The translations under genes were made by a program, and so were the position numbers. Under the pieces are notes generated by a model that saw only the letters and a program-made list of their open reading frames with translations, was not told where the DNA came from and did not search any database. Shown here piece by piece: positions 2,035 through 35,640 of a DNA stretch of 60,220 bases; within the stretch, counting starts at the first letter, position 1, and the number at the start of each line of letters is the position of its first letter. This DNA is from a virus, in the IMG/VR virus record IMGVR_UViG_3300045988_066950; one strand, given 5' to 3'.

Positions 2035-2994
2035 TTAGTAATAAATTAGTGTTATCTGGCGATACATGCTACCATTTCCACTCCATTTCATGTTAATGGT
2101 GTTTCCACTGATGTGCAGGTACTCAATGTCATGGTTGTACGCAGTTTCTGCGATGTCGCAGATGCCAACCAGCGTGCCACCCGTAAAAGTGTAACTCCAG
2201 TACATCGAGCTTGGAGCCATGGTAATTGTCATTGTTTTCAGACTTACAGCGGTGACCTTCCCGTTCCCGTTGTGATATCCAGCAGGGATGGTTGCCTCGC
2301 CTCCAGGATTTATTGTTGTACCCCAGCTGCCTCGATTCGGCATGTTACCCTTCACGATGCTATGTGCGTCATTGGCATAGCCGCTGCTCCCCTCCAGCAT
2401 CTTGTCTGCGGTGACATTGCCTGTCAGCGTGAGCGTGCCCTCTTTGATGGTCTTGCCGCCCGCATAGAACTTATTCCCTGCCAGCACATTGTCCTCGGTG
2501 GCGGTGGCGAGTGCCAGCTTGGATGCGCTGAGGCCACCGCCGCCGTTAAAATTTAGCTGCGTTCCATCATAGAAAAACAGCACCCATCTGCCCTTGACGA
2601 TGGTGTCTCCGTCCACTGCGTCTGCGCCACAGTAGGCCGGAACCGCTACGCCGTTGACCGTGAAACTGTCGCCCGCTGCCCAGGATGCGGGAATCTTGCA
2701 CCGGCCTACCGCGCCGCTGCCGACCAGCGCATATACGCCGTTCCTCTTTTCGCAGGTGTAGGGCTGCACGGTCACCTCGCCGCCGCCCGCGCCCGTGGGG
2801 TCCAGCTCGGTGAATCCAGCCGCCACGCGGCGCTCCAGGTCGTTCATCGTGTCCGCATCGAAGGCATCGCCATCTTCCATGATGATGCCCTCGGAGCGGG
2901 AAACATCGTACTCGCCATCGTTGCCAGTCGGGGTCAGCTTGCGCCGAGAGGGGTGTTCGCTCTGGCGATTGACCCATACTTTTCGTTCGTACAT
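2035..2994 (-). CDS. tail fibre / receptor-binding-like structural protein
   Basis: Internal ATG at 2994 overlaps the upstream stop (TGATG). Gly-rich, beta-rich sequence sitting in the tail-tip block. Confidence 0.45.
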   Translation of the reverse strand: MYERKVWVNRQSEHPSRRKLTPTGNDGEYDVSRSEGIIMEDGDAFDADTMNDLERRVAAGFTELDPTGAGGGEVTVQPYTCEKRNGVYALVGSGAVGRCKIPASWAAGDSFTVNGVAVPAYCGADAVDGDTIVKGRWVLFFYDGTQLNFNGGGGLSASKLALATATEDNVLAGNKFYAGGKTIKEGTLTLTGNVTADKMLEGSSGYANDAHSIVKGNMPNRGSWGTTINPGGEATIPAGYHNGNGKVTAVSLKTMTITMAPSSMYWSYTFTGGTLVGICDIAETAYNHDIEYLHISGNTINMKWSGNGSMYRQITLIYY

Positions 2995-3389
2995 CAGATC
3001 ACTCCAATCGTCTGTCCGGCGCAGATTTCGCCGGTGTAGCTGTGTTGTGCGTTCCTGCGCCAGAGCTCGTACATCGACCACTGCACCTGCTCCATCGTAT
3101 TGATGTCGCTGTACAGGGTGCTGGGCGTCTCGGGCAGGGCCGGTGTTCCCGGCAGGGTATAGTAGGCATCGCGCAGGGTCTGGATGTTTTGCAGAATACG
3201 CTCCATCTCGCTGCGCGTCAGCAGGTCGGTCGGGGCCCATGTCTTGGTCTGGATTTTAGGCCCCAGCAGTTCTGCCAGATAAGCGGAGTTACCCTCCAGC
3301 CGATTCAGCAGTGCCGCGTTGATATAGCACTTATCCGCGCCTGCGGACACATCCGCTTTGGTGCGGTCGTAGATTGGCTGCTGCCACAT
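2994..3389 (-). CDS. hypothetical tail-tip associated protein
   Basis: 131-aa ORF, translationally coupled on both sides within the tail block. Confidence 0.4.
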   Translation of the reverse strand: MWQQPIYDRTKADVSAGADKCYINAALLNRLEGNSAYLAELLGPKIQTKTWAPTDLLTRSEMERILQNIQTLRDAYYTLPGTPALPETPSTLYSDINTMEQVQWSMYELWRRNAQHSYTGEICAGQTIGVI

Positions 3390-5146
3390 CAGATCAGGTT
3401 CCTTTCTCCGGCATGGATTTCACCCGCATAGGCGGCTGCGTTGCTGGTAAGTCTACGCCCGATGACCTTGGCGTCTGCCAAAAAGCCACCAGTCAAATCA
3501 AATTCCAGCTTTGTGAGCATCCCTCGCACCATTTCGCCGCCGAAGCTCTGAATGATGAGCCTGTCGGCCAGCTTTTCATCACCGGCGACCATGGAGAAGT
3601 TCTGCTCGTATCGCTGTGCGTAATGCTCCAGCACCCGCACGGCCACGGCCTCTGCGCGGCTTGGGTCTACCAGCGTGGCGCCTGTCACGGTCAGCTCATT
3701 GTCCTGCACATTGGGCGGCAGGTTCGCCGCTGTGCGCTTCAGGACGACCGTGCTGTCGGCGTATTTGTGGCCCGTGACACAGACCTCGCCCGCTTCTGCG
3801 ACTGTCAGGGTGCAGAGGTTGACGCCGCTCTCGGTGAGCTCTGCGCCCGTGACGGTCAGGCTGCCCACGACTGCCGGGGCGTTGAAGGTCACCCGGTAGG
3901 TGCCCGGGTCAAGGGTGTCTCTGTACAGTTCCTCAGTGGATTCTCCCGGCAGGTATCGGTGGGCGGTCACTGCCACAGCGGTAATCAGCGGATTGAGCGT
4001 TACCTTGCTGCCGTCCTGCAGCTTTCTGTCGTAGGTAATCATGCCGCTGGCCTTGGACGGCGCAGGGGCAATGCGTATAAGCTCGCCTCGACTGCAATCG
4101 ACCACAGCGCCTATGGCAAATGCGAGCTGCTGCAGGGCCTCTCTGCGCGTCCCTGCGGCAATGTATCCCTGCACTCGCTCTGCGGCCAGACTCTCGTCCA
4201 AGGTGTAACTGTATCCTGTCAGGATCGCCGCTGCGAGCTCTGCTGCGGTGGTGTCGTAGATGCCCCCATCGAACGGTGAGCCGTCCAGCAGGCCTATGGC
4301 ATCGACGGCAGAGAAGTCCGCCAGCGTATCACCGCTGTTGCTCCAGTCCGAGAGGTAAAATGTGCCCATGCAATAACTCACGCTGCTTGTGCTGCGTGCG
4401 TCCTGCTTTACATCCTCCCAGATCGTGAATTTCTGCTTGTGCTGCAGAACGTCAAAGTAGCCCTCGGGATTCAAGATGGAAAAGCGGCCCTCTTTGTTGT
4501 ACAGCGACACGTTCAGCGTGTTGATGCTGATCTCGGAGCTGATGGGGTCGCATTCCTCCAGAACATGGGCCTCTACGATTTCGTGACCGCTGAAATGCAA
4601 GTAAACACCGTAGTCAATGCCCGCCAATTTGAGGTACCTCCCGGGCCGGTTTGTCTCGAAAAAATGAATACGGATGCGGCGGTAATTCTCTACCTTCTTG
4701 GCGCAGTAATAATCCACCGCGTTCGGGTAAAAGAGCTCCGTAGCGATAAGTCCTCCGTCTTGGCCGAACCACTGGATTTTGACGCGGCTGGCCCAGTCCT
4801 CTGTTGGGATGTAAAAGTGCAGCGTGAGGCCGCTGCTGCTGTGGTCTTGCGTGAAGGTGATGTCCAGCACAGGCGGGTCGGCAAACACGCCGCTCTTGTC
4901 GCTCTGCGTGGCGCTCCACAGCCCCCAGAAGTACTGCTCGGGAACCTCCGGGAAGAAGGCAAAGCTGCCATCCATGAGCCACTGCTCGCTCTCCAGTGTG
5001 CCGTATTTGTTTTGGCTCGGTACGCTTTCCAGCAACAGGTCGCGGCCCAGATTGCAAAAAGGCTTTGCGGTCGTGCAGCTCGGGGCGCTGTCGCCTCTGG
5101 CGGTGACATCGTAAAGGCCGAACTCCACGCGCGTATTGGTTCTCAT
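3389..5146 (-). CDS. tail-associated (Tal/baseplate hub position) protein
   Basis: 585-aa ORF two genes downstream of the tape measure (a small 122-aa Dit-position protein lies between). Call is by synteny. Confidence 0.5.
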   Translation of the reverse strand: MRTNTRVEFGLYDVTARGDSAPSCTTAKPFCNLGRDLLLESVPSQNKYGTLESEQWLMDGSFAFFPEVPEQYFWGLWSATQSDKSGVFADPPVLDITFTQDHSSSGLTLHFYIPTEDWASRVKIQWFGQDGGLIATELFYPNAVDYYCAKKVENYRRIRIHFFETNRPGRYLKLAGIDYGVYLHFSGHEIVEAHVLEECDPISSEISINTLNVSLYNKEGRFSILNPEGYFDVLQHKQKFTIWEDVKQDARSTSSVSYCMGTFYLSDWSNSGDTLADFSAVDAIGLLDGSPFDGGIYDTTAAELAAAILTGYSYTLDESLAAERVQGYIAAGTRREALQQLAFAIGAVVDCSRGELIRIAPAPSKASGMITYDRKLQDGSKVTLNPLITAVAVTAHRYLPGESTEELYRDTLDPGTYRVTFNAPAVVGSLTVTGAELTESGVNLCTLTVAEAGEVCVTGHKYADSTVVLKRTAANLPPNVQDNELTVTGATLVDPSRAEAVAVRVLEHYAQRYEQNFSMVAGDEKLADRLIIQSFGGEMVRGMLTKLEFDLTGGFLADAKVIGRRLTSNAAAYAGEIHAGERNLI

Positions 5147-31016: not shown

Positions 31017-31991
31017 TTACTCCTCCTTTGCCATCAAATCCTTACCGCACAGCGGGCAGATTTTGCCGTCAACCTTGATGCCGCACACGGGGCAGCGCAG
31101 GCGCACATTGGTGTTGATTTCATGGCTGTCGGCCTCACTAGCCGCGCTCTCAAGGTTTTTCACGGCCTGTGCGTAGTAGCTATCTTTCAGTTCGATGCCT
31201 AGCCCACGACGACCCATGAGTACGGCCTGATAGGGCACAGAACCGATACCCGCAAACGGATCAAGCACGATGTCGCCGGGATTCGTCCACAGGTCGATGC
31301 ACCGCTCGATTACATCCAACTGCAACGGGCAGATGTGCTTTTCATCCTTTTCATCGCGGGCGCTCTTGCGCTGCAAGGTGTTGGACTGCCGCACATCCAT
31401 CCAGACCGGTGATGCGTATTTCTGCCACACATCCACTGGGAACGATTCATGGTCGTGGGGGATAGGCTCAGGGTTTTCACCGGGCTTGCGGAATGTCACC
31501 ACATAATCAGGCAGCCCCTGCCTCGACATCGCAGAATCCTTGCGGATCTGCTTGTGTAGCAAGCCGAGGGCTTTCGTGCGCTGCATCTCCGTGACAGGGT
31601 TTTTCCAGATGCACACCTCCGAATGGAAGATGAACCCGTACTCGGTCATCTCGCGGATAATGTCACCGCGAAAATCCTTGATGCCGATAAAGCCGTCACG
31701 GGATTTCATGGCGGGCAGATTCATGCAGTGGATAGATACCAGCCGCCCCGGCATGATGACCCGGTACAGCTCCGCCACGAGGTAGCCGAAATGCTGTGCA
31801 AACTCCGCGCCATCGCTGCTGTTGCTCATGTCCCGATCACTGTTGGAGTAGGTGTACAGGCTGGCGAACGGCGGGGAAAAGATGGAGTAGTGGACGCTGT
31901 TATCGGGGATGCCGCGCAGGGTTTCCACGCAATCCCCCTGATACATTGCCCAGCGCTGTGCGCTGTCAATCAACTGATTAAGCACATTCAT
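31017..31991 (-). CDS. beta-class amino DNA methyltransferase (SPPF motif, possibly N4-cytosine) with a C-terminal zinc ribbon
   Basis: Contains FSPPFASLY, a later AdoMet-binding region DPFAGIGS, and a C-terminal CPVCG...CPLCG. Confidence 0.75.
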   Translation of the reverse strand: MNVLNQLIDSAQRWAMYQGDCVETLRGIPDNSVHYSIFSPPFASLYTYSNSDRDMSNSSDGAEFAQHFGYLVAELYRVIMPGRLVSIHCMNLPAMKSRDGFIGIKDFRGDIIREMTEYGFIFHSEVCIWKNPVTEMQRTKALGLLHKQIRKDSAMSRQGLPDYVVTFRKPGENPEPIPHDHESFPVDVWQKYASPVWMDVRQSNTLQRKSARDEKDEKHICPLQLDVIERCIDLWTNPGDIVLDPFAGIGSVPYQAVLMGRRGLGIELKDSYYAQAVKNLESAASEADSHEINTNVRLRCPVCGIKVDGKICPLCGKDLMAKEE

Positions 31992-33363
31992 GTCTAAATT
32001 CCTCCCATGCAGGTAGGCGCATAGCCGTCTGCGGTTCATAGGGCGTTGTCAGGCGGCAGGTGCTTTGCAACTGCTTTTTGACGATCTCGCGGGTCTGTTC
32101 GCCCATTGCGGCCCGCATTTTATCGCAATCGGCTTGCTTGCGCTCGATATTGGCCTTGACCGCGCCCTCGCGGGCACTGATAACGATGTACACATCCACC
32201 GGCTCAGACTGCCCAAAACGCCAACAGCGGCGCACAGCCTGATAATATTGCTCATAACTGTCAGACAAACCGACAAAAATCATCTTGTGGCAGTTCTGCC
32301 AGTTCATGCCGAATCCGGCAATAGAGGGCTTTGTGACGAGCGCCCGGTTAAAGCCCATCGAAAAGCCCAGCAGGCGGGAACTTTTCAGCGCGGCCCTATC
32401 ACTGCCCTTGACCTCTACCGCATCGGGGATGCCGTGCGCCAGTGCTTCACTCTCCGAATTGAGGTCGCACCACACGAGCCACTGTTCACCAGGGTCGCCA
32501 TTCACCAGATCGGCCACCGCTTGACACCGTTCTGCGAGTGTAGCCCGTCTGGCCTCCCGCCGCTGCGTCAGCGTCATGCTCTCGGTAATCGGTGCATCTC
32601 CGTCCACGATGACCTCATGCACCCTCAGCGGCGGGAGGTCGTACCCCGGCAGGTCATAGCCGAGGTCTGCGGGACTGTTCATAACCACAGCCCAACTACC
32701 CAGCCATTGCCAGAAAACATCCTCAGCGTGACCTTTGAGCCGCCATTTGGAGGTCTGCCCGCCATCATGGACAAAGAACATAGACAGCATCTCAGAGTAG
32801 GACATTATGCCCAAAAATTCCGCGTGATTGCCAAGCTCCATAAAGTCATTGGGCGCGGGGGTGGCGGTGCAGGCCAGCCTGAACGGCGTATCCGAGAAAA
32901 AGTCGATGATCTGATTACGCACCTTGCCCGTAAAGGATTTCAGGATGCTGGATTCATCCAGCACTACGGCAGAGAAATGCACCCCGGCGAATTTGTCCAG
33001 TTTTTCATAGTTGGTAATGTTCACACCGGGCTGAATATCATCGGCGGTTTCGCAGAGGGTGACGGGCACTCCGAATTTCAAGCCTTCGCCCACGGTCTGA
33101 GGGGAAACGGTAAGCGGCGCCACAATGAGGGCATTTCCACCTGTATGCACACACACCCGATGCGCCCATTCAAGCTGCATCGCGGTCTTGCCAAGGCCGC
33201 AATCGGCAAAAATAGCGGCGCGGCCCTTTGCCAGCGCCCACCGCACGATGTCTTTTTGAAAGTCGTACAGCTTGTCGTTGAGATCGTTCACGGTCAGAAC
33301 GATGCTGTCGGTATGTACTGCCCGCTCCGACTTGTGAACAACGAAATCAGAATAATTTTCCAT
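31978..33363 (-). CDS. SNF2/DEAD-like helicase associated with the methyltransferases
   Basis: DCGLGKT, VLDESS, and a C-terminal RRCWRFGQ motif. Confidence 0.8.
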   Translation of the reverse strand: MENYSDFVVHKSERAVHTDSIVLTVNDLNDKLYDFQKDIVRWALAKGRAAIFADCGLGKTAMQLEWAHRVCVHTGGNALIVAPLTVSPQTVGEGLKFGVPVTLCETADDIQPGVNITNYEKLDKFAGVHFSAVVLDESSILKSFTGKVRNQIIDFFSDTPFRLACTATPAPNDFMELGNHAEFLGIMSYSEMLSMFFVHDGGQTSKWRLKGHAEDVFWQWLGSWAVVMNSPADLGYDLPGYDLPPLRVHEVIVDGDAPITESMTLTQRREARRATLAERCQAVADLVNGDPGEQWLVWCDLNSESEALAHGIPDAVEVKGSDRAALKSSRLLGFSMGFNRALVTKPSIAGFGMNWQNCHKMIFVGLSDSYEQYYQAVRRCWRFGQSEPVDVYIVISAREGAVKANIERKQADCDKMRAAMGEQTREIVKKQLQSTCRLTTPYEPQTAMRLPAWEEFRHECA

Positions 33364-35155
33364 CCTCTACCTCCGGGAACCATTTCTTCGTAACCGCGAT
33401 GGGAAACTCCTCAATCTCCGAGGCCCAAACGCACAACTCTTTGCGCCCAGCGTGTAGCTGTGCCCACACATACGGGAATCCACCAATACCATCAAACAAA
33501 CTGCCGAGGGTAGCGTCATCCGGCAGACGGTCAGAGATGCCGCCGAGAACGTAGTACCACTGCGGCAGGGCGATGGAGTTACCCAGTGCTTTATATCGGG
33601 GCGTGTCAGCGTCCTTATGGGTCTTGCCCTTGCTGTCTATCCAGCTACCAAGGTCTGTCCATCCATCGGGATAGCCCTGCAGGCGCTCACACTCGGTAGG
33701 GGTCAGCCGCCTCACAATCCAGCGGATGATTTTTTCAATCACCGATGGCCCTGTGTTAGCTCCGCCCTGCCCGGTAGCAGTCGTCAGAGTTACAGCCCTA
33801 TCGCCCGTTAGAGTACCGTTATACAGGTCTGCACCTACGGGCTGGGCGATTACTCTACCGAGAGAATCTGCCCTGCCGGGACCCTTATAATCGCGGGCCA
33901 GTAGCGCACCTGCTACGGTATCGCCCTGTAATGTGATGGCTGTATAGTCGGTGACGCGGCTGTTGTGGTCGCCGGTCATGGTAGGAGATGTGATGCCGTC
34001 GCCGTTGCCCCGCGCATCATAGATAAGCGGCTCGGCTACGGGATTGATGTAGTTGAGGCTTTGCCCGCCGTTGTCTTTTGCCTGCAAGGTTGCGGACAGT
34101 TCTTCATTGGCGGTCATATTGCGGCAGTCAAGCGCGAACGCAACGGCAGGGCGATCAATCGTATTCAGTGTGTAACAGACATCCTCTTTGACACCGGTGC
34201 CGTTTGCACCCGCCGTGTCTGCGCGGTCAATCGTGTTGCCCTGAATACAGAATGTCGGTTCGACAATAGCGATGCCGCCCTGATTCTTTGCGGGGTCAGG
34301 CGGTTCGGCCACAAAAAGCGTCTGATCTTGCAAGGTGGAGAGGGTGGCGCTCTTTTCGGTCTGCACCAACGCACCCTTGCCGCCGCCATCACACCCGGAA
34401 CGGATTTTTAAGGTGTATGCTTTGGCAATATCAGGACAACAGACCCCATGCTCATGACCCTCCTGCAATGTATAGGCGGCATCACCCGCCTGCCCAACGC
34501 CAAGACCCGTTCTCTCTCCGAGAGATTTGTGACGGGTCGCAATTTGGAGGTTTACGGGGATGGCATCTGTGCAATCTGCTGTTCCAGCGCCGTTTTCAAC
34601 AGCTCCGGCAGCTGCTTGCCCCGGCGTGATGCCCGGCGCAAAATGCCCTCGCAGGCTCTCCGGCTCAAATAGTATTTCTCCGGCACGCCCACCTGTAAGA
34701 TCGAGGACAAGCGAGATGCGCAGGCGACGTTGGGGAACGCCCCAGTGCTGGGCATCCATAGTTCGCCACGCCAGCGAGTAGTGGTCTGCCAGAATTGCCC
34801 CGGCGCGGGGCCATTTGATCCCCCCCCGTGCGTTCGTAGGTCTAGGAATAACAGCGTTGGGGTCGATGACCCGACAGAGGCTTTGGAGGACGGCATGAAA
34901 ATCTTCTCCTTTGTTTGAACTGAACGCGCCGGAAACATTCTCCCAGACAGCGTATTTGGGGTACGCACCAAAAGTGGCGTATCTCATTTCGCGGATGATG
35001 CGGACAGCCTCAGAGAACAGTCCAGAGCGTTCTCCGGCCATACCGGCCCTTTTTCCGGCGATGGAAAGGTCTTGACACGGCGATCCGAACGTGATGACAT
35101 CCACGGGCGGGATGGTGTACCCGCTCATTTTCGTAATGTCGCCAAGATGTACCAT
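33347..35155 (-). CDS. C5-cytosine DNA methyltransferase, circularly permuted motif order, very long variable region
   Basis: Motif order is GDIT (III), GSPCQDLS (IV), WENV (VI), QRRLR (VIII), about 330 aa of variable region, RRLTPTECERLQGYP (IX), GNSIALP (X), LFDGIGGF (I), ASEIEE (II). ATG preceded by GAGGAGG. Confidence 0.8.
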   Translation of the reverse strand: MVHLGDITKMSGYTIPPVDVITFGSPCQDLSIAGKRAGMAGERSGLFSEAVRIIREMRYATFGAYPKYAVWENVSGAFSSNKGEDFHAVLQSLCRVIDPNAVIPRPTNARGGIKWPRAGAILADHYSLAWRTMDAQHWGVPQRRLRISLVLDLTGGRAGEILFEPESLRGHFAPGITPGQAAAGAVENGAGTADCTDAIPVNLQIATRHKSLGERTGLGVGQAGDAAYTLQEGHEHGVCCPDIAKAYTLKIRSGCDGGGKGALVQTEKSATLSTLQDQTLFVAEPPDPAKNQGGIAIVEPTFCIQGNTIDRADTAGANGTGVKEDVCYTLNTIDRPAVAFALDCRNMTANEELSATLQAKDNGGQSLNYINPVAEPLIYDARGNGDGITSPTMTGDHNSRVTDYTAITLQGDTVAGALLARDYKGPGRADSLGRVIAQPVGADLYNGTLTGDRAVTLTTATGQGGANTGPSVIEKIIRWIVRRLTPTECERLQGYPDGWTDLGSWIDSKGKTHKDADTPRYKALGNSIALPQWYYVLGGISDRLPDDATLGSLFDGIGGFPYVWAQLHAGRKELCVWASEIEEFPIAVTKKWFPEVEDGKLF

Positions 35156-35157
35156 CG

Positions 35158-35640
35158 TCAAGCCTCCTCAGTAACAGTGGCAGCGTGTGTAGCCATCAGT
35201 GCTTTGCGCTCGGCCATCAAAATCTGCCCCAGCTTATTCAGCCCCTTAGTTCCCTCACTACGGCAGCGGGCGCATCCGCAAACGCCCCAGTAGTTGTCGT
35301 TCCACGTGTTACCCTCGATCAACTCGGCATCGCCAGTGTCGATAAGGGCCTGTGCAAGGGCGGGATTTTGGGAAAATTTCGCATGGATGACATCAGCCAT
35401 GATGCTGTCACGCTCTTTCTCCCATCCCTTGCGCAGTTTGATTTTGCGCCCGATTGCTTTCGCCACATTGGGCGGGACAGTGCAGAACGCCGCGCGGTCA
35501 ATCGGGACATTGCATTTTGCTGCCTGAAAAGCAGCCTCAGCACTCCGATAAGTCAACCCATCAATAGTGACGGGGCAGGCGCAGTAGTTGCTCAAAAAGT
35601 GGTATTCGCCGGTAAAGGCGGTGATTTGTACCTTGCTCAT
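35158..35640 (-). CDS. NADAR (YbiA/DUF1768) domain protein
   Basis: FTGEYHFLSNY...YRSAEAAFQAAK...NYWG pattern. Confidence 0.7.
   Translation of the reverse strand: MSKVQITAFTGEYHFLSNYCACPVTIDGLTYRSAEAAFQAAKCNVPIDRAAFCTVPPNVAKAIGRKIKLRKGWEKERDSIMADVIHAKFSQNPALAQALIDTGDAELIEGNTWNDNYWGVCGCARCRSEGTKGLNKLGQILMAERKALMATHAATVTEEA

Follow-up and report, generated by a model that had tools for sequence, protein, structure and literature searches.

C5-cytosine DNA methyltransferases canonically carry their conserved motifs in the linear order I to X, and circularly permuted variants of this order exist. The DRM enzymes of plants are eukaryotic proteins that act as dimers in RNA-directed DNA methylation; their chain is broken between motifs V and VI and runs VI–X, then I–V. 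The phage enzymes M.SPRI, M.Phi3TI and M.Rho11sI have the specificity GGCC in common, and exchangeable modules, reordering and threonine-leucine (TL) dipeptides are reportedly, from the work of the Trautner laboratory, the hallmarks of the multispecific Bacillus phage enzymes. In the sole systematic permutation study of C5-methyltransferases, Slaska-Kiss et al. (2018; PMC5944983) engineered the Class B permutants cp62M.MpeI as well as cp58M.SssI, which were the most active among those engineered. The topology of these constructs, with a break between motifs II and III, was reported to be absent from natural enzymes: a scan of REBASE yielded 27 natural permuted C5-methyltransferases, all broken in the variable region, and a handicap in cofactor binding was suggested as the reason nature avoids the II/III break (PMC5944983). 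Our search of the literature turned up nothing published later on a II/III permutant from nature. Enzymes made of two polypeptides are also described. In M.EcoHK31I, the alpha gene contains the coding sequence of the beta chain in a different frame, and M.AquI is split into an alpha and a beta chain. Here we describe a gene from the IMG/VR virus record IMGVR_UViG_3300045988_066950 (60,220 nucleotides; this whole stretch is called the window) whose predicted product has the motif order of a Class B permutant and whose DNA contains a second conserved reading frame.

Motif order and natural occurrence of the methylase

The predicted protein is matched by the Pfam profile PF00145 with 116.9 bits (cut-off 22) and by TIGR00675 with a score of 106.3 (cut-off 100.65). 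Its motifs follow the order III-IV-VI-VIII, variable region, IX-X, I-II (Table 1). Residues 5–95 match PF00145 positions 46–130 and the final 63 residues match positions 4–46; the order is broken at profile position 46, and approximately 15 residues connect the motif X helix to motif I. A preliminary description of the gene, made from its letters alone, had proposed that joining the C-terminus to the N-terminus would recreate the canonical order, and that a profile search would return partial matches in swapped order. Both expectations were borne out: all of the motifs were located, the partial matches come out swapped and non-collinear, and an artificial rejoining of the two termini matches PF00145 positions 4–130 collinearly in one stretch. 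In an alignment of 70 relatives, residues P26, C27, Q28, E72, V74, Q142, R143, R144 and R146, together with R482, G525, N526, F554, G556 and E580, are invariant or nearly so.

A model of the methylase was built with AlphaFold2 on the same 70-sequence alignment. The predicted local distance difference test score (pLDDT) is mostly 86–97 for residues 1–165, with a dip at residues 21–50, and 87–97 for residues 491–590, including 93–97 across the junction of motif X to motif I. The top Foldseek matches of the model in the PDB are M.HhaI, M.MpeI and ntDRM. Each covers one segment, as expected because the aligner depends on sequence order and the query is permuted. A sequence search of the PDB aligned residues 484–569 with the X-to-I junction of the plant DRM chains 4onq and 7l4c.

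The protein thus departs from the canonical I-to-X order, and it also differs from the permuted enzymes known from nature. Like the M.BssHII group (M.Alw26I, M2.Eco31I, M.Esp3I, M2.BsaI), it is a natural permutant of the same fold with motif X before motif I. Unlike this group (Type H/J), it has its break inside the large domain, past motif II and ahead of motif III, and its target recognition domain (TRD) region and motifs IX–X follow motif VIII as they do in canonical enzymes. With plant DRM2 and ntDRM it has only the X-to-I junction inside one chain in common; motifs III–V remain N-terminal to motif VI, and the break lies between II and III rather than between V and VI. It agrees with the definition of Class B, in which a new N-terminus lies between motifs II and III and the native C-terminus is joined to the native N-terminus. 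The engineered Class B enzymes likewise start in the II/III loop, join the motif X helix to motif I and run III–X, then I–II, but they were made in the laboratory from mycoplasma enzymes that are specific for CG and have one TRD, whereas the window gene belongs to a natural phage lineage and has a large modular variable region, a nested open reading frame (ORF) and a poly-G tract. By its profile order and the definition of Class B, the window protein is, at the level of sequence, a natural Class B circular permutant, a topology not hitherto reported from nature. Its chain begins in a surface loop between motifs II and III, passes through IV, VI, VIII, the variable region and IX–X, and ends with the S-adenosylmethionine (AdoMet)-binding motifs I–II, which a short linker fuses to the motif X helix. 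By sequence and model, the product is an orphan phage C5-cytosine DNA methyltransferase that is intact and probably active.

The start of the gene had been placed in the preliminary description by a GAGGAGG sequence and the stop of the overlapping NADAR gene. The sequence agrees with this placement and adds a TGA in the methylase frame directly 5′ of the start. The ATG at 35155, giving 602 amino acids, is the more probable start codon; an in-frame TTG at 35161 is the alternative. An N-terminal extension is impossible because the in-frame TGA and the NADAR stop (35158–35160), which overlaps there, lie upstream.

A search of 1.84 billion cluster representatives (50% identity) matched 30,989 proteins at E ≤ 0.001. 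The best 150 of these comprise 100 permuted proteins (III–VI > VIII > IX–X > I–II), 35 canonical ones and a remainder of fragments. Homologues of the methylase number thousands, and the closest 120 are 84–100% identical and 564–650 amino acids long. The permuted proteins start with ‘M[KI]HLGDITK’ and finish with ‘WASEIEEFPIAVTKxRF..’, and the canonical relatives are continuous across the same site (‘...VTTKRLPxMKHLGD...’). The cultured Faecalibacterium phages FP_Toutatis and Lelie have the same motif order as the window; the homologous region is annotated in them as methyltransferase fragments or hypothetical proteins only. A contiguous IX-X-I-II junction is also present in about 48 species-representative genomes, mostly Oscillospirales, of the genera Gemmiger, Faecalibacterium, Dysosmobacter, Oscillibacter, Acutalibacter and Christensenella. 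The II/III break that the preliminary description did not recognise from described enzymes is therefore real, natural and widespread.

One pure clade of a neighbour-joining tree holds 94 of the 100 permuted proteins; the tree is rough (821 alignment columns), and its four state changes should not be over-read. The permuted arrangement probably arose largely once. It would have arisen by tandem duplication, in-frame fusion and trimming. Two canonical relatives (L008 and L029) already have a methionine at the position of the permuted start (‘...LPKMKHLGD...’ and ‘...LPFMKHYGD...’), which would ease such an origin by duplication and trimming; Javan191 has a valine at this site (‘...MPEVKHLGD...’). 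One cluster representative of 540 amino acids (P0244) has the order IX–X > I–II > III–VI > VIII and may be a piece of an intermediate in a tandem duplication, or have another break point. A further relative (P0048) has an apparent 9-residue insertion within motif IV (PCQD-YPEIQDNQT-LS).

A second reading frame inside the gene

The preliminary description had treated the locus as a single ORF. The ORF itself stands, but the same DNA can be read in another frame that is conserved too, an ORF nested in +1 around motif VIII (Table 1). In Toutatis, the N-terminal half of the methylase shifts into a frame encoding ‘...LSQILEVNVPQRYFLSARACQGILTRASRRGKALPDLLKTAL’, and the same peptide is present in the +1 frame of the window. 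By tblastn, the nested peptide was found in 138–152 phage records, always within a C5-methylase gene; among them are phages of Streptococcus, Vibrio, Pseudomonas, Caulobacter and Mycobacterium, and the dmt genes of P1, P7 and SJ46 contain it as well. Vibrio phage CP-T1, Burkholderia phage Bcep22, Caulobacter phages and Mycobacterium phage Omega are examples with the peptide. The peptide lies in the +1 frame at 85 of 85 loci, in P1 and in 70 of 71 bacterial genes. A literature search on nested C5-methylase genes and on the nested peptide motif returned the EcoHK31I and AquI papers only.

The frame is kept open. Over codons −60 to +39 around motif VIII, the 65 distinct full-length genes have no stop in the +1 frame (0/6,500), compared with 2–7% stops in the +2 frame and 2–8% in the +1 frame elsewhere in these genes. 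The 71 bacterial genes have 4/7,100 stops in the +1 frame over the same codons, versus 270/7,100 in +2. Nucleotide diversity at the three main-frame codon positions is 0.457/0.257/0.230 on the 3′ side of motif VIII and 0.246/0.150/0.592 in a control block at motif IV; 3′ of motif VIII, the periodicity is thus that of the nested frame. Here the nested frame has an amino-acid identity of 0.69 and the main frame one of 0.46, and the C-terminal helical domain of the nested product, approximately 50 residues, is better conserved than the methylase frame it overlaps. Isoleucine in the main frame is written with the rare codon ATA in 63 of the 71 genes, as the nested tyrosine requires.

The start signals of the nested frame are retained as well. 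The main-frame motif ‘E-M-R-x-x-T-(N/D/H/G)-G’ is written GAA ATG AGG ... xAT GGN, which in the +1 frame gives the stop codon TGA, the Shine-Dalgarno sequence GAGG, an 8-nt spacer and an ATG or GTG. This start codon is kept while the main-frame residue that it overlaps varies (N, D, H, G). The window ORF has, in addition, an in-frame ATG at 34896 with AAGGAG before it. Two other ways into the frame were rejected as general routes. Initiation at the methionine before the conserved domain (codon −8) was discarded because only 41 of 80 genes have an ATG there and the open frame extends approximately 70 codons further upstream; entry through a poly-G tract was discarded as 55 of 84 genes have no such tract. 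A programmed ribosomal frameshift from the nested frame back to the main frame was considered as a possibility; the position of the nested stop varies. In one relative (P0082) about 30 residues between ‘SSNK’ and the G-run are in the nested frame and the main frame then resumes, apparently a compensated double frameshift. In P1 dmt (AF234172 66412–68676; coding sequence 1906–4170 of L085), the nested +1 ORF spans 2204–2692 of L085, or 66710–67198 of AF234172, with 163 open codons; it is missing from the annotation of the detailed P1 record. These comparisons of sequence show the nested frame to be a real coding frame under purifying selection across the wider family, P1 dmt included, and the predicted nested gene has about 115–139 codons and a ribosome-binding site and start of its own.

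AlphaFold predicts the N-terminal 85 residues of the nested product to be disordered and places three helices at residues 87–135. A total of 1627 ‘hypothetical’ database proteins match it, and the best among the matches listed are 63–123 amino acids long and have no Pfam domain. A search of the nested model with Foldseek gave matches at chance level only.

The nested domain aligns with ‘RLREILEEYVDEKYYLSEEKT’, a main-frame segment of the SPR, rho11s and phi3T enzymes that lies between motif VIII and the TRDs (Smith-Waterman z up to 7.7; hhalign E = 1.7e-4). The segment ‘L.eILE..VDEKYYLS’ is in the main frame in the M.SPRI group, as against the +1 frame in the window gene; at this place the main frame of the methylase family contains no more than a linker of low complexity and poor conservation. 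Five relatives have a main-frame stop 45–70 codons past motif VIII, and their nested frame extends into the TRD, IX and X. Two of these are canonical (L008, L009) and three permuted (L027, L031, L046), the latter continuing into motifs I–II. They have two long overlapping ORFs (about 2465–4020) with the same internal start, a layout like that of M.AquI, in which the alpha chain ends after motif VIII and the beta chain carries TRD-IX-X. Most likely, on this sequence evidence and by analogy, the nested product is a subunit of the methylase, because its domain resembles the canonical in-frame segment that is missing from the main frame and because the split relatives run from it into TRD-IX-X. 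It would supply the post-motif-VIII segment in trans as a small subunit, like the beta chain of M.EcoHK31I. In both systems a C5-methyltransferase gene is overlapped by a second frame for a separate polypeptide. The EcoHK31I beta chain, unlike the nested product, carries motif IX and overlaps another part of the gene; in the window, motifs IX–X stay in the main frame and the nested product has the post-motif-VIII segment only. P1 Dmt, a fusion of Dam and C5 domains, has an N-terminal C5 domain of the same wider family with a nested +1 ORF (‘...LLSQVLEQTSIPQRYFLSSKACAGILRRGEKRRKSLPPLLQMAL...’), but it differs in its canonical order, its fused Dam domain and its lack of a poly-G tract. A broader reading of the sequences, which we hold tentatively and place somewhat below even, is that the large phage C5-methyltransferase family, P1 Dmt and the permuted clade together, would consist of obligate two-polypeptide enzymes with a nested-frame segment, to which this clade would add the Class B order, the cassettes and re-routing by the poly-G tract.

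The strongest competitor to the subunit role is that the nested ORF is real and its product acts outside the methylase, as a regulator of expression or timing, a DNA-binding protein or an overprinted anti-defence factor. The product has no homology to any known family, its basic, helix-turn-helix-like C-terminus follows a disordered N-terminus, and in most genes the frame ends as a free-standing small ORF. Against this stand its strict co-occurrence with the methylase family, canonical and permuted, the in-frame fusion to TRD-IX-X in the five relatives, and the resemblance to the canonical segment that the main frame lacks. We consider such an independent function a serious but doubtful alternative.

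Variable region and poly-G tract

The variable region begins with a disordered linker (residues ~166–194), which overlaps the conserved domain of the nested ORF, and continues with approximately seven TRD-like modules and one remnant. In 119 homologues with at least 84% identity (mostly ~97%), all insertions and deletions of at least 15 residues lie within residues 195–436, and they are clean blocks gained or lost: 50 residues in 20 sequences, 36 residues in 46 sequences, and also blocks of 48, 28, 24 and 15 residues. Relatives such as L010 carry the same modules in another order. The region contains ten TL dipeptides, compared with 2.4 ± 1.4 in shuffled sequences (approximately four-fold, P about 5e-5), and the other 296 residues of the protein contain one. 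The preliminary description had pointed to TL motifs here; the enrichment holds, and the count is ten rather than five to six. Module M4 aligns with ‘NGRRFK.DGEPAFTVNTIDRHGVA’, a domain common to M.SPRI, M.Rho11sI and M.Phi3TI, with Smith-Waterman z = 6.5–7.5. This link to SPR was seen by module-wise alignment only; a tblastn search with the entire variable region matched gut phages only in mosaic parts, and Bacillus phages not at all. Like the window enzyme with its putative cassettes, the M.SPRI group are phage orphan C5-methyltransferases with tandem, separable TRD cassettes and TL dipeptides, but they have the canonical order, two to four TRDs and low overall identity to the window protein. 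The variable region therefore behaves, in sequence comparison, like an array of about seven exchangeable recognition cassettes. An enzyme with such an array would probably methylate several unrelated sequences; the methylase is likely to be multispecific and would probably protect the phage against many host restriction systems. The multi-TRD organisation proposed in the preliminary description has indirect support from the modular insertions and deletions, the changes in order, the TL enrichment and the likeness of M4; AlphaFold gave no confident fold of the region.

It is rather unlikely that the enzyme is permuted and active with one or few specificities, its variable region being mostly scaffold, relic cassettes or a non-TRD insertion. 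Such a reading would accommodate the pLDDT of approximately 35 throughout residues 166–481, the resemblance of M4 alone to a known TRD, at least one remnant module (residues 284–300) and the existence of relatives with far shorter variable regions (minimum 63 residues). It fits poorly with the clean gain and loss of modules among close homologues, with their recurrence in changed order and with the four-fold TL enrichment.

A homopolymer tract lies in the loop between motifs VI and VIII. We compared the tract in 23 IMG/VR contigs with identical flanks, mostly from data set 3300045988, and found that its length varies. G8 is present in 12/23 contigs, which have a full-length ORF or an in-frame ORF ended by the contig edge, except for one that breaks further downstream; every full-length or contig-end-cut in-frame ORF among the 23 has G8. 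With G7 (1/23) or G10 (2/23), the N-terminus is fused to the nested domain in a product of 202–233 amino acids, and with G6 (2/23) or G9 (6/23) the ORF is truncated. The tract is G9 in Toutatis and G14 in Lelie, and both genes are frameshifted there (L001 4001–5412, L002 4001–5417). The Toutatis locus is annotated as two methyltransferase genes, the N-terminal half being fused to the nested domain (201 amino acids), and the Lelie homologue is annotated as a truncated hypothetical protein. A tract of G6–G9 occurs at the same site in 29 of 84 related genes. The length of the tract is polymorphic across assemblies. As in phase-variable methyltransferases, a homopolymer inside the ORF switches the frame among near-identical genomes, and the polymorphism probably reflects phase variation at the level of the population. 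A change in length would switch the full-length enzyme off, and a change of −1 or +2 would fuse the N-terminal half to the nested domain.

The variation might instead come from errors in sequencing or assembling homopolymers: runs of at least 8 are error-prone with several platforms, and the single large data set supplied most of the contigs. We find this unlikely. Consensus assemblies with identical flanks differ by one to several bases (G6–G10, with G14 in Lelie), the tract recurs at the same codon in the 29 related genes, and the reading frame is lost there in both of the phages that were cultured and sequenced independently of each other.

Two further alternatives fare much worse. It is strongly disfavoured that the +1 frame is conserved only passively, through methylase constraint or codon bias, and is never translated. 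On the 5′ side of motif VIII, conservation of the main frame is high in its own right (identity 0.80, versus 0.51 for the nested frame), and the overlapping frame would be conserved to some extent for that reason; on the 3′ side, however, the identities (0.69 nested, 0.46 main) and the codon periodicity favour the nested frame (0.457/0.257/0.230, control 0.246/0.150/0.592), rare ATA codons are used in 63/71 genes, the nested start is kept despite a varying main-frame residue (N, D, H, G), and +1 stops number 0/6500 and 4/7100 versus about 4% in +2. An error of assembly or sequencing, or a pseudogene in decay that remained from two tandem methylase genes, either of which would leave the motif order without functional meaning, is effectively refuted: frameshifts do occur in Toutatis, Lelie and L038 and odd variants in P0048 and P0082, but the same order and conserved ends recur in 100 clusters at 50% identity and in cultured phages and isolate genomes, all catalytic residues are invariant, and the flanking genes are NADAR and SNF2 genes and not methylase remnants.

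In its workings as a whole, the methylase would come closest to a Class B permutant that also has a cassette array of the SPR type and a nested partner of the EcoHK31I type. The combined explanation of Class B permutant, cassette array, nested +1 gene and G8 switch is, in our judgement, probable. A number of points weigh against it. Activity and specificity in the permuted clade are predicted from sequence and model, no characterised member of the clade having come to light, and translation of the nested ORF is predicted from comparison. The variable region has no confident predicted fold, and at a pLDDT of approximately 35 for residues 166–481, no structural statement on the number of TRDs is possible. 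Among the eight modules, the seven other than M4 score z < 4 against TRDs of known enzymes, and some of the modules could be relics, as the one at residues 284–300 looks to be. The homologous nested start of the window lineage is TTG (34971) with a weak Shine-Dalgarno sequence. Searches of Pfam, PHROGs, NCBIfam, PADLOC and PDB sequences gave no match for the nested product, whose last two helices (residues 104–135) have a pLDDT of approximately 80 and which folds only partly when alone. The hhalign match of the nested product to the canonical segment is short (31 columns, probability 49%), and hhalign against M.HhaI gave no similarity. Part of the variation in homopolymer length among assemblies could stem from sequencing error.

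Gene surroundings and meaning of the locus

The coordinates of the features are collected in Table 1. The NADAR gene (35158–35640) abuts the methylase start, a gene for an SNF2-type helicase (31978–33363) lies at the other flank, and a family A DNA polymerase gene is found further upstream of the methylase and NADAR genes. Together with the second methyltransferase gene in Table 1, these surroundings are a phage replication and modification module. The top PADLOC profile for the methylase is ‘orphan methyltransferase’. No restriction enzyme partner is evident adjoining the gene; this would fit a protective orphan methylase.

Table 1. Positions of the methylase gene and associated features in the window.
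Feature	Position	Strand	Basis or remark
C5-cytosine DNA methyltransferase gene, circularly permuted by its motif order	33347..35155	minus	ORF list, sequence; Pfam and TIGRFAM matches
Shine-Dalgarno GAGGAGG	35163..35169	minus	7 nt 5′ of methylase ATG
N-terminal catalytic block: motifs III (GDI), IV, VI	34871..35155	minus	Pfam profile positions 46–130
Motif IV (PCQ)	35072–35080	minus	located in sequence
Motif VI (ENV)	34934–34942	minus	located in sequence
G8 homopolymer (C8 on plus strand), loop between motifs VI and VIII	34820..34827	minus	putative frame-switching tract
Motif VIII (QRRLR)	34718..34732	minus	invariant Q142, R143, R144, R146 in alignment
Nested overlapping ORF, +1 frame, 139 codons from TTG at 34971	34552..34971	minus	open frame, selection, homologues
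Conserved C-terminal domain of nested ORF, MPSTGAFPNVACASRLSSILQVGVPEKYYLSRRACEGILRRASRRGKQLPELLKTALEQQ	34555–34755	minus	consensus LSxILxxxVPEKYYLSxxACxGILRRAxxRGKxLPxxLxxAL
Variable region, ~310 residues (166–478)	33722..34660	minus	insertions and deletions, TL dipeptides, pLDDT ~35
Module M4 (residues 301–344, NGTGVKEDVCYTLNTIDRPAVA)	34124..34255	minus	Smith-Waterman versus shuffles
Motifs IX (RRLTPTECERLQGYPDGW) and X (ALGNSIALP)	33563..33712	minus	Pfam profile positions 275–319
Motifs I (LFDGIGGF, AdoMet binding) and II (WASEIEEFPIAVTKKWFP), C-terminal	33368..33511	minus	Pfam positions 4–46
Second methyltransferase N6_N4_Mtase, 340 residues, CxxC...CxxC tail	31017–32039	minus	two genes downstream of methylase

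The II/III break, which was the best tolerated in the only systematic permutation study of C5-methyltransferases, is abundant naturally in gut phages. A natural permutant makes the kinetic hypothesis of a cofactor handicap testable on a natural enzyme, and, as its termini adjoin the AdoMet pocket, it is a possible scaffold for split or targeted methyltransferase tools. The nested gene, if translated, would be an unannotated protein-coding gene in a widespread methylase family that includes phage P1, and a clear case of long-lived dual coding in DNA phages. The cassette array and the poly-G switch would bear on how gut phages evade the many restriction systems of Oscillospirales hosts, and would affect how methylation-based assignment of hosts is read in metagenomes.

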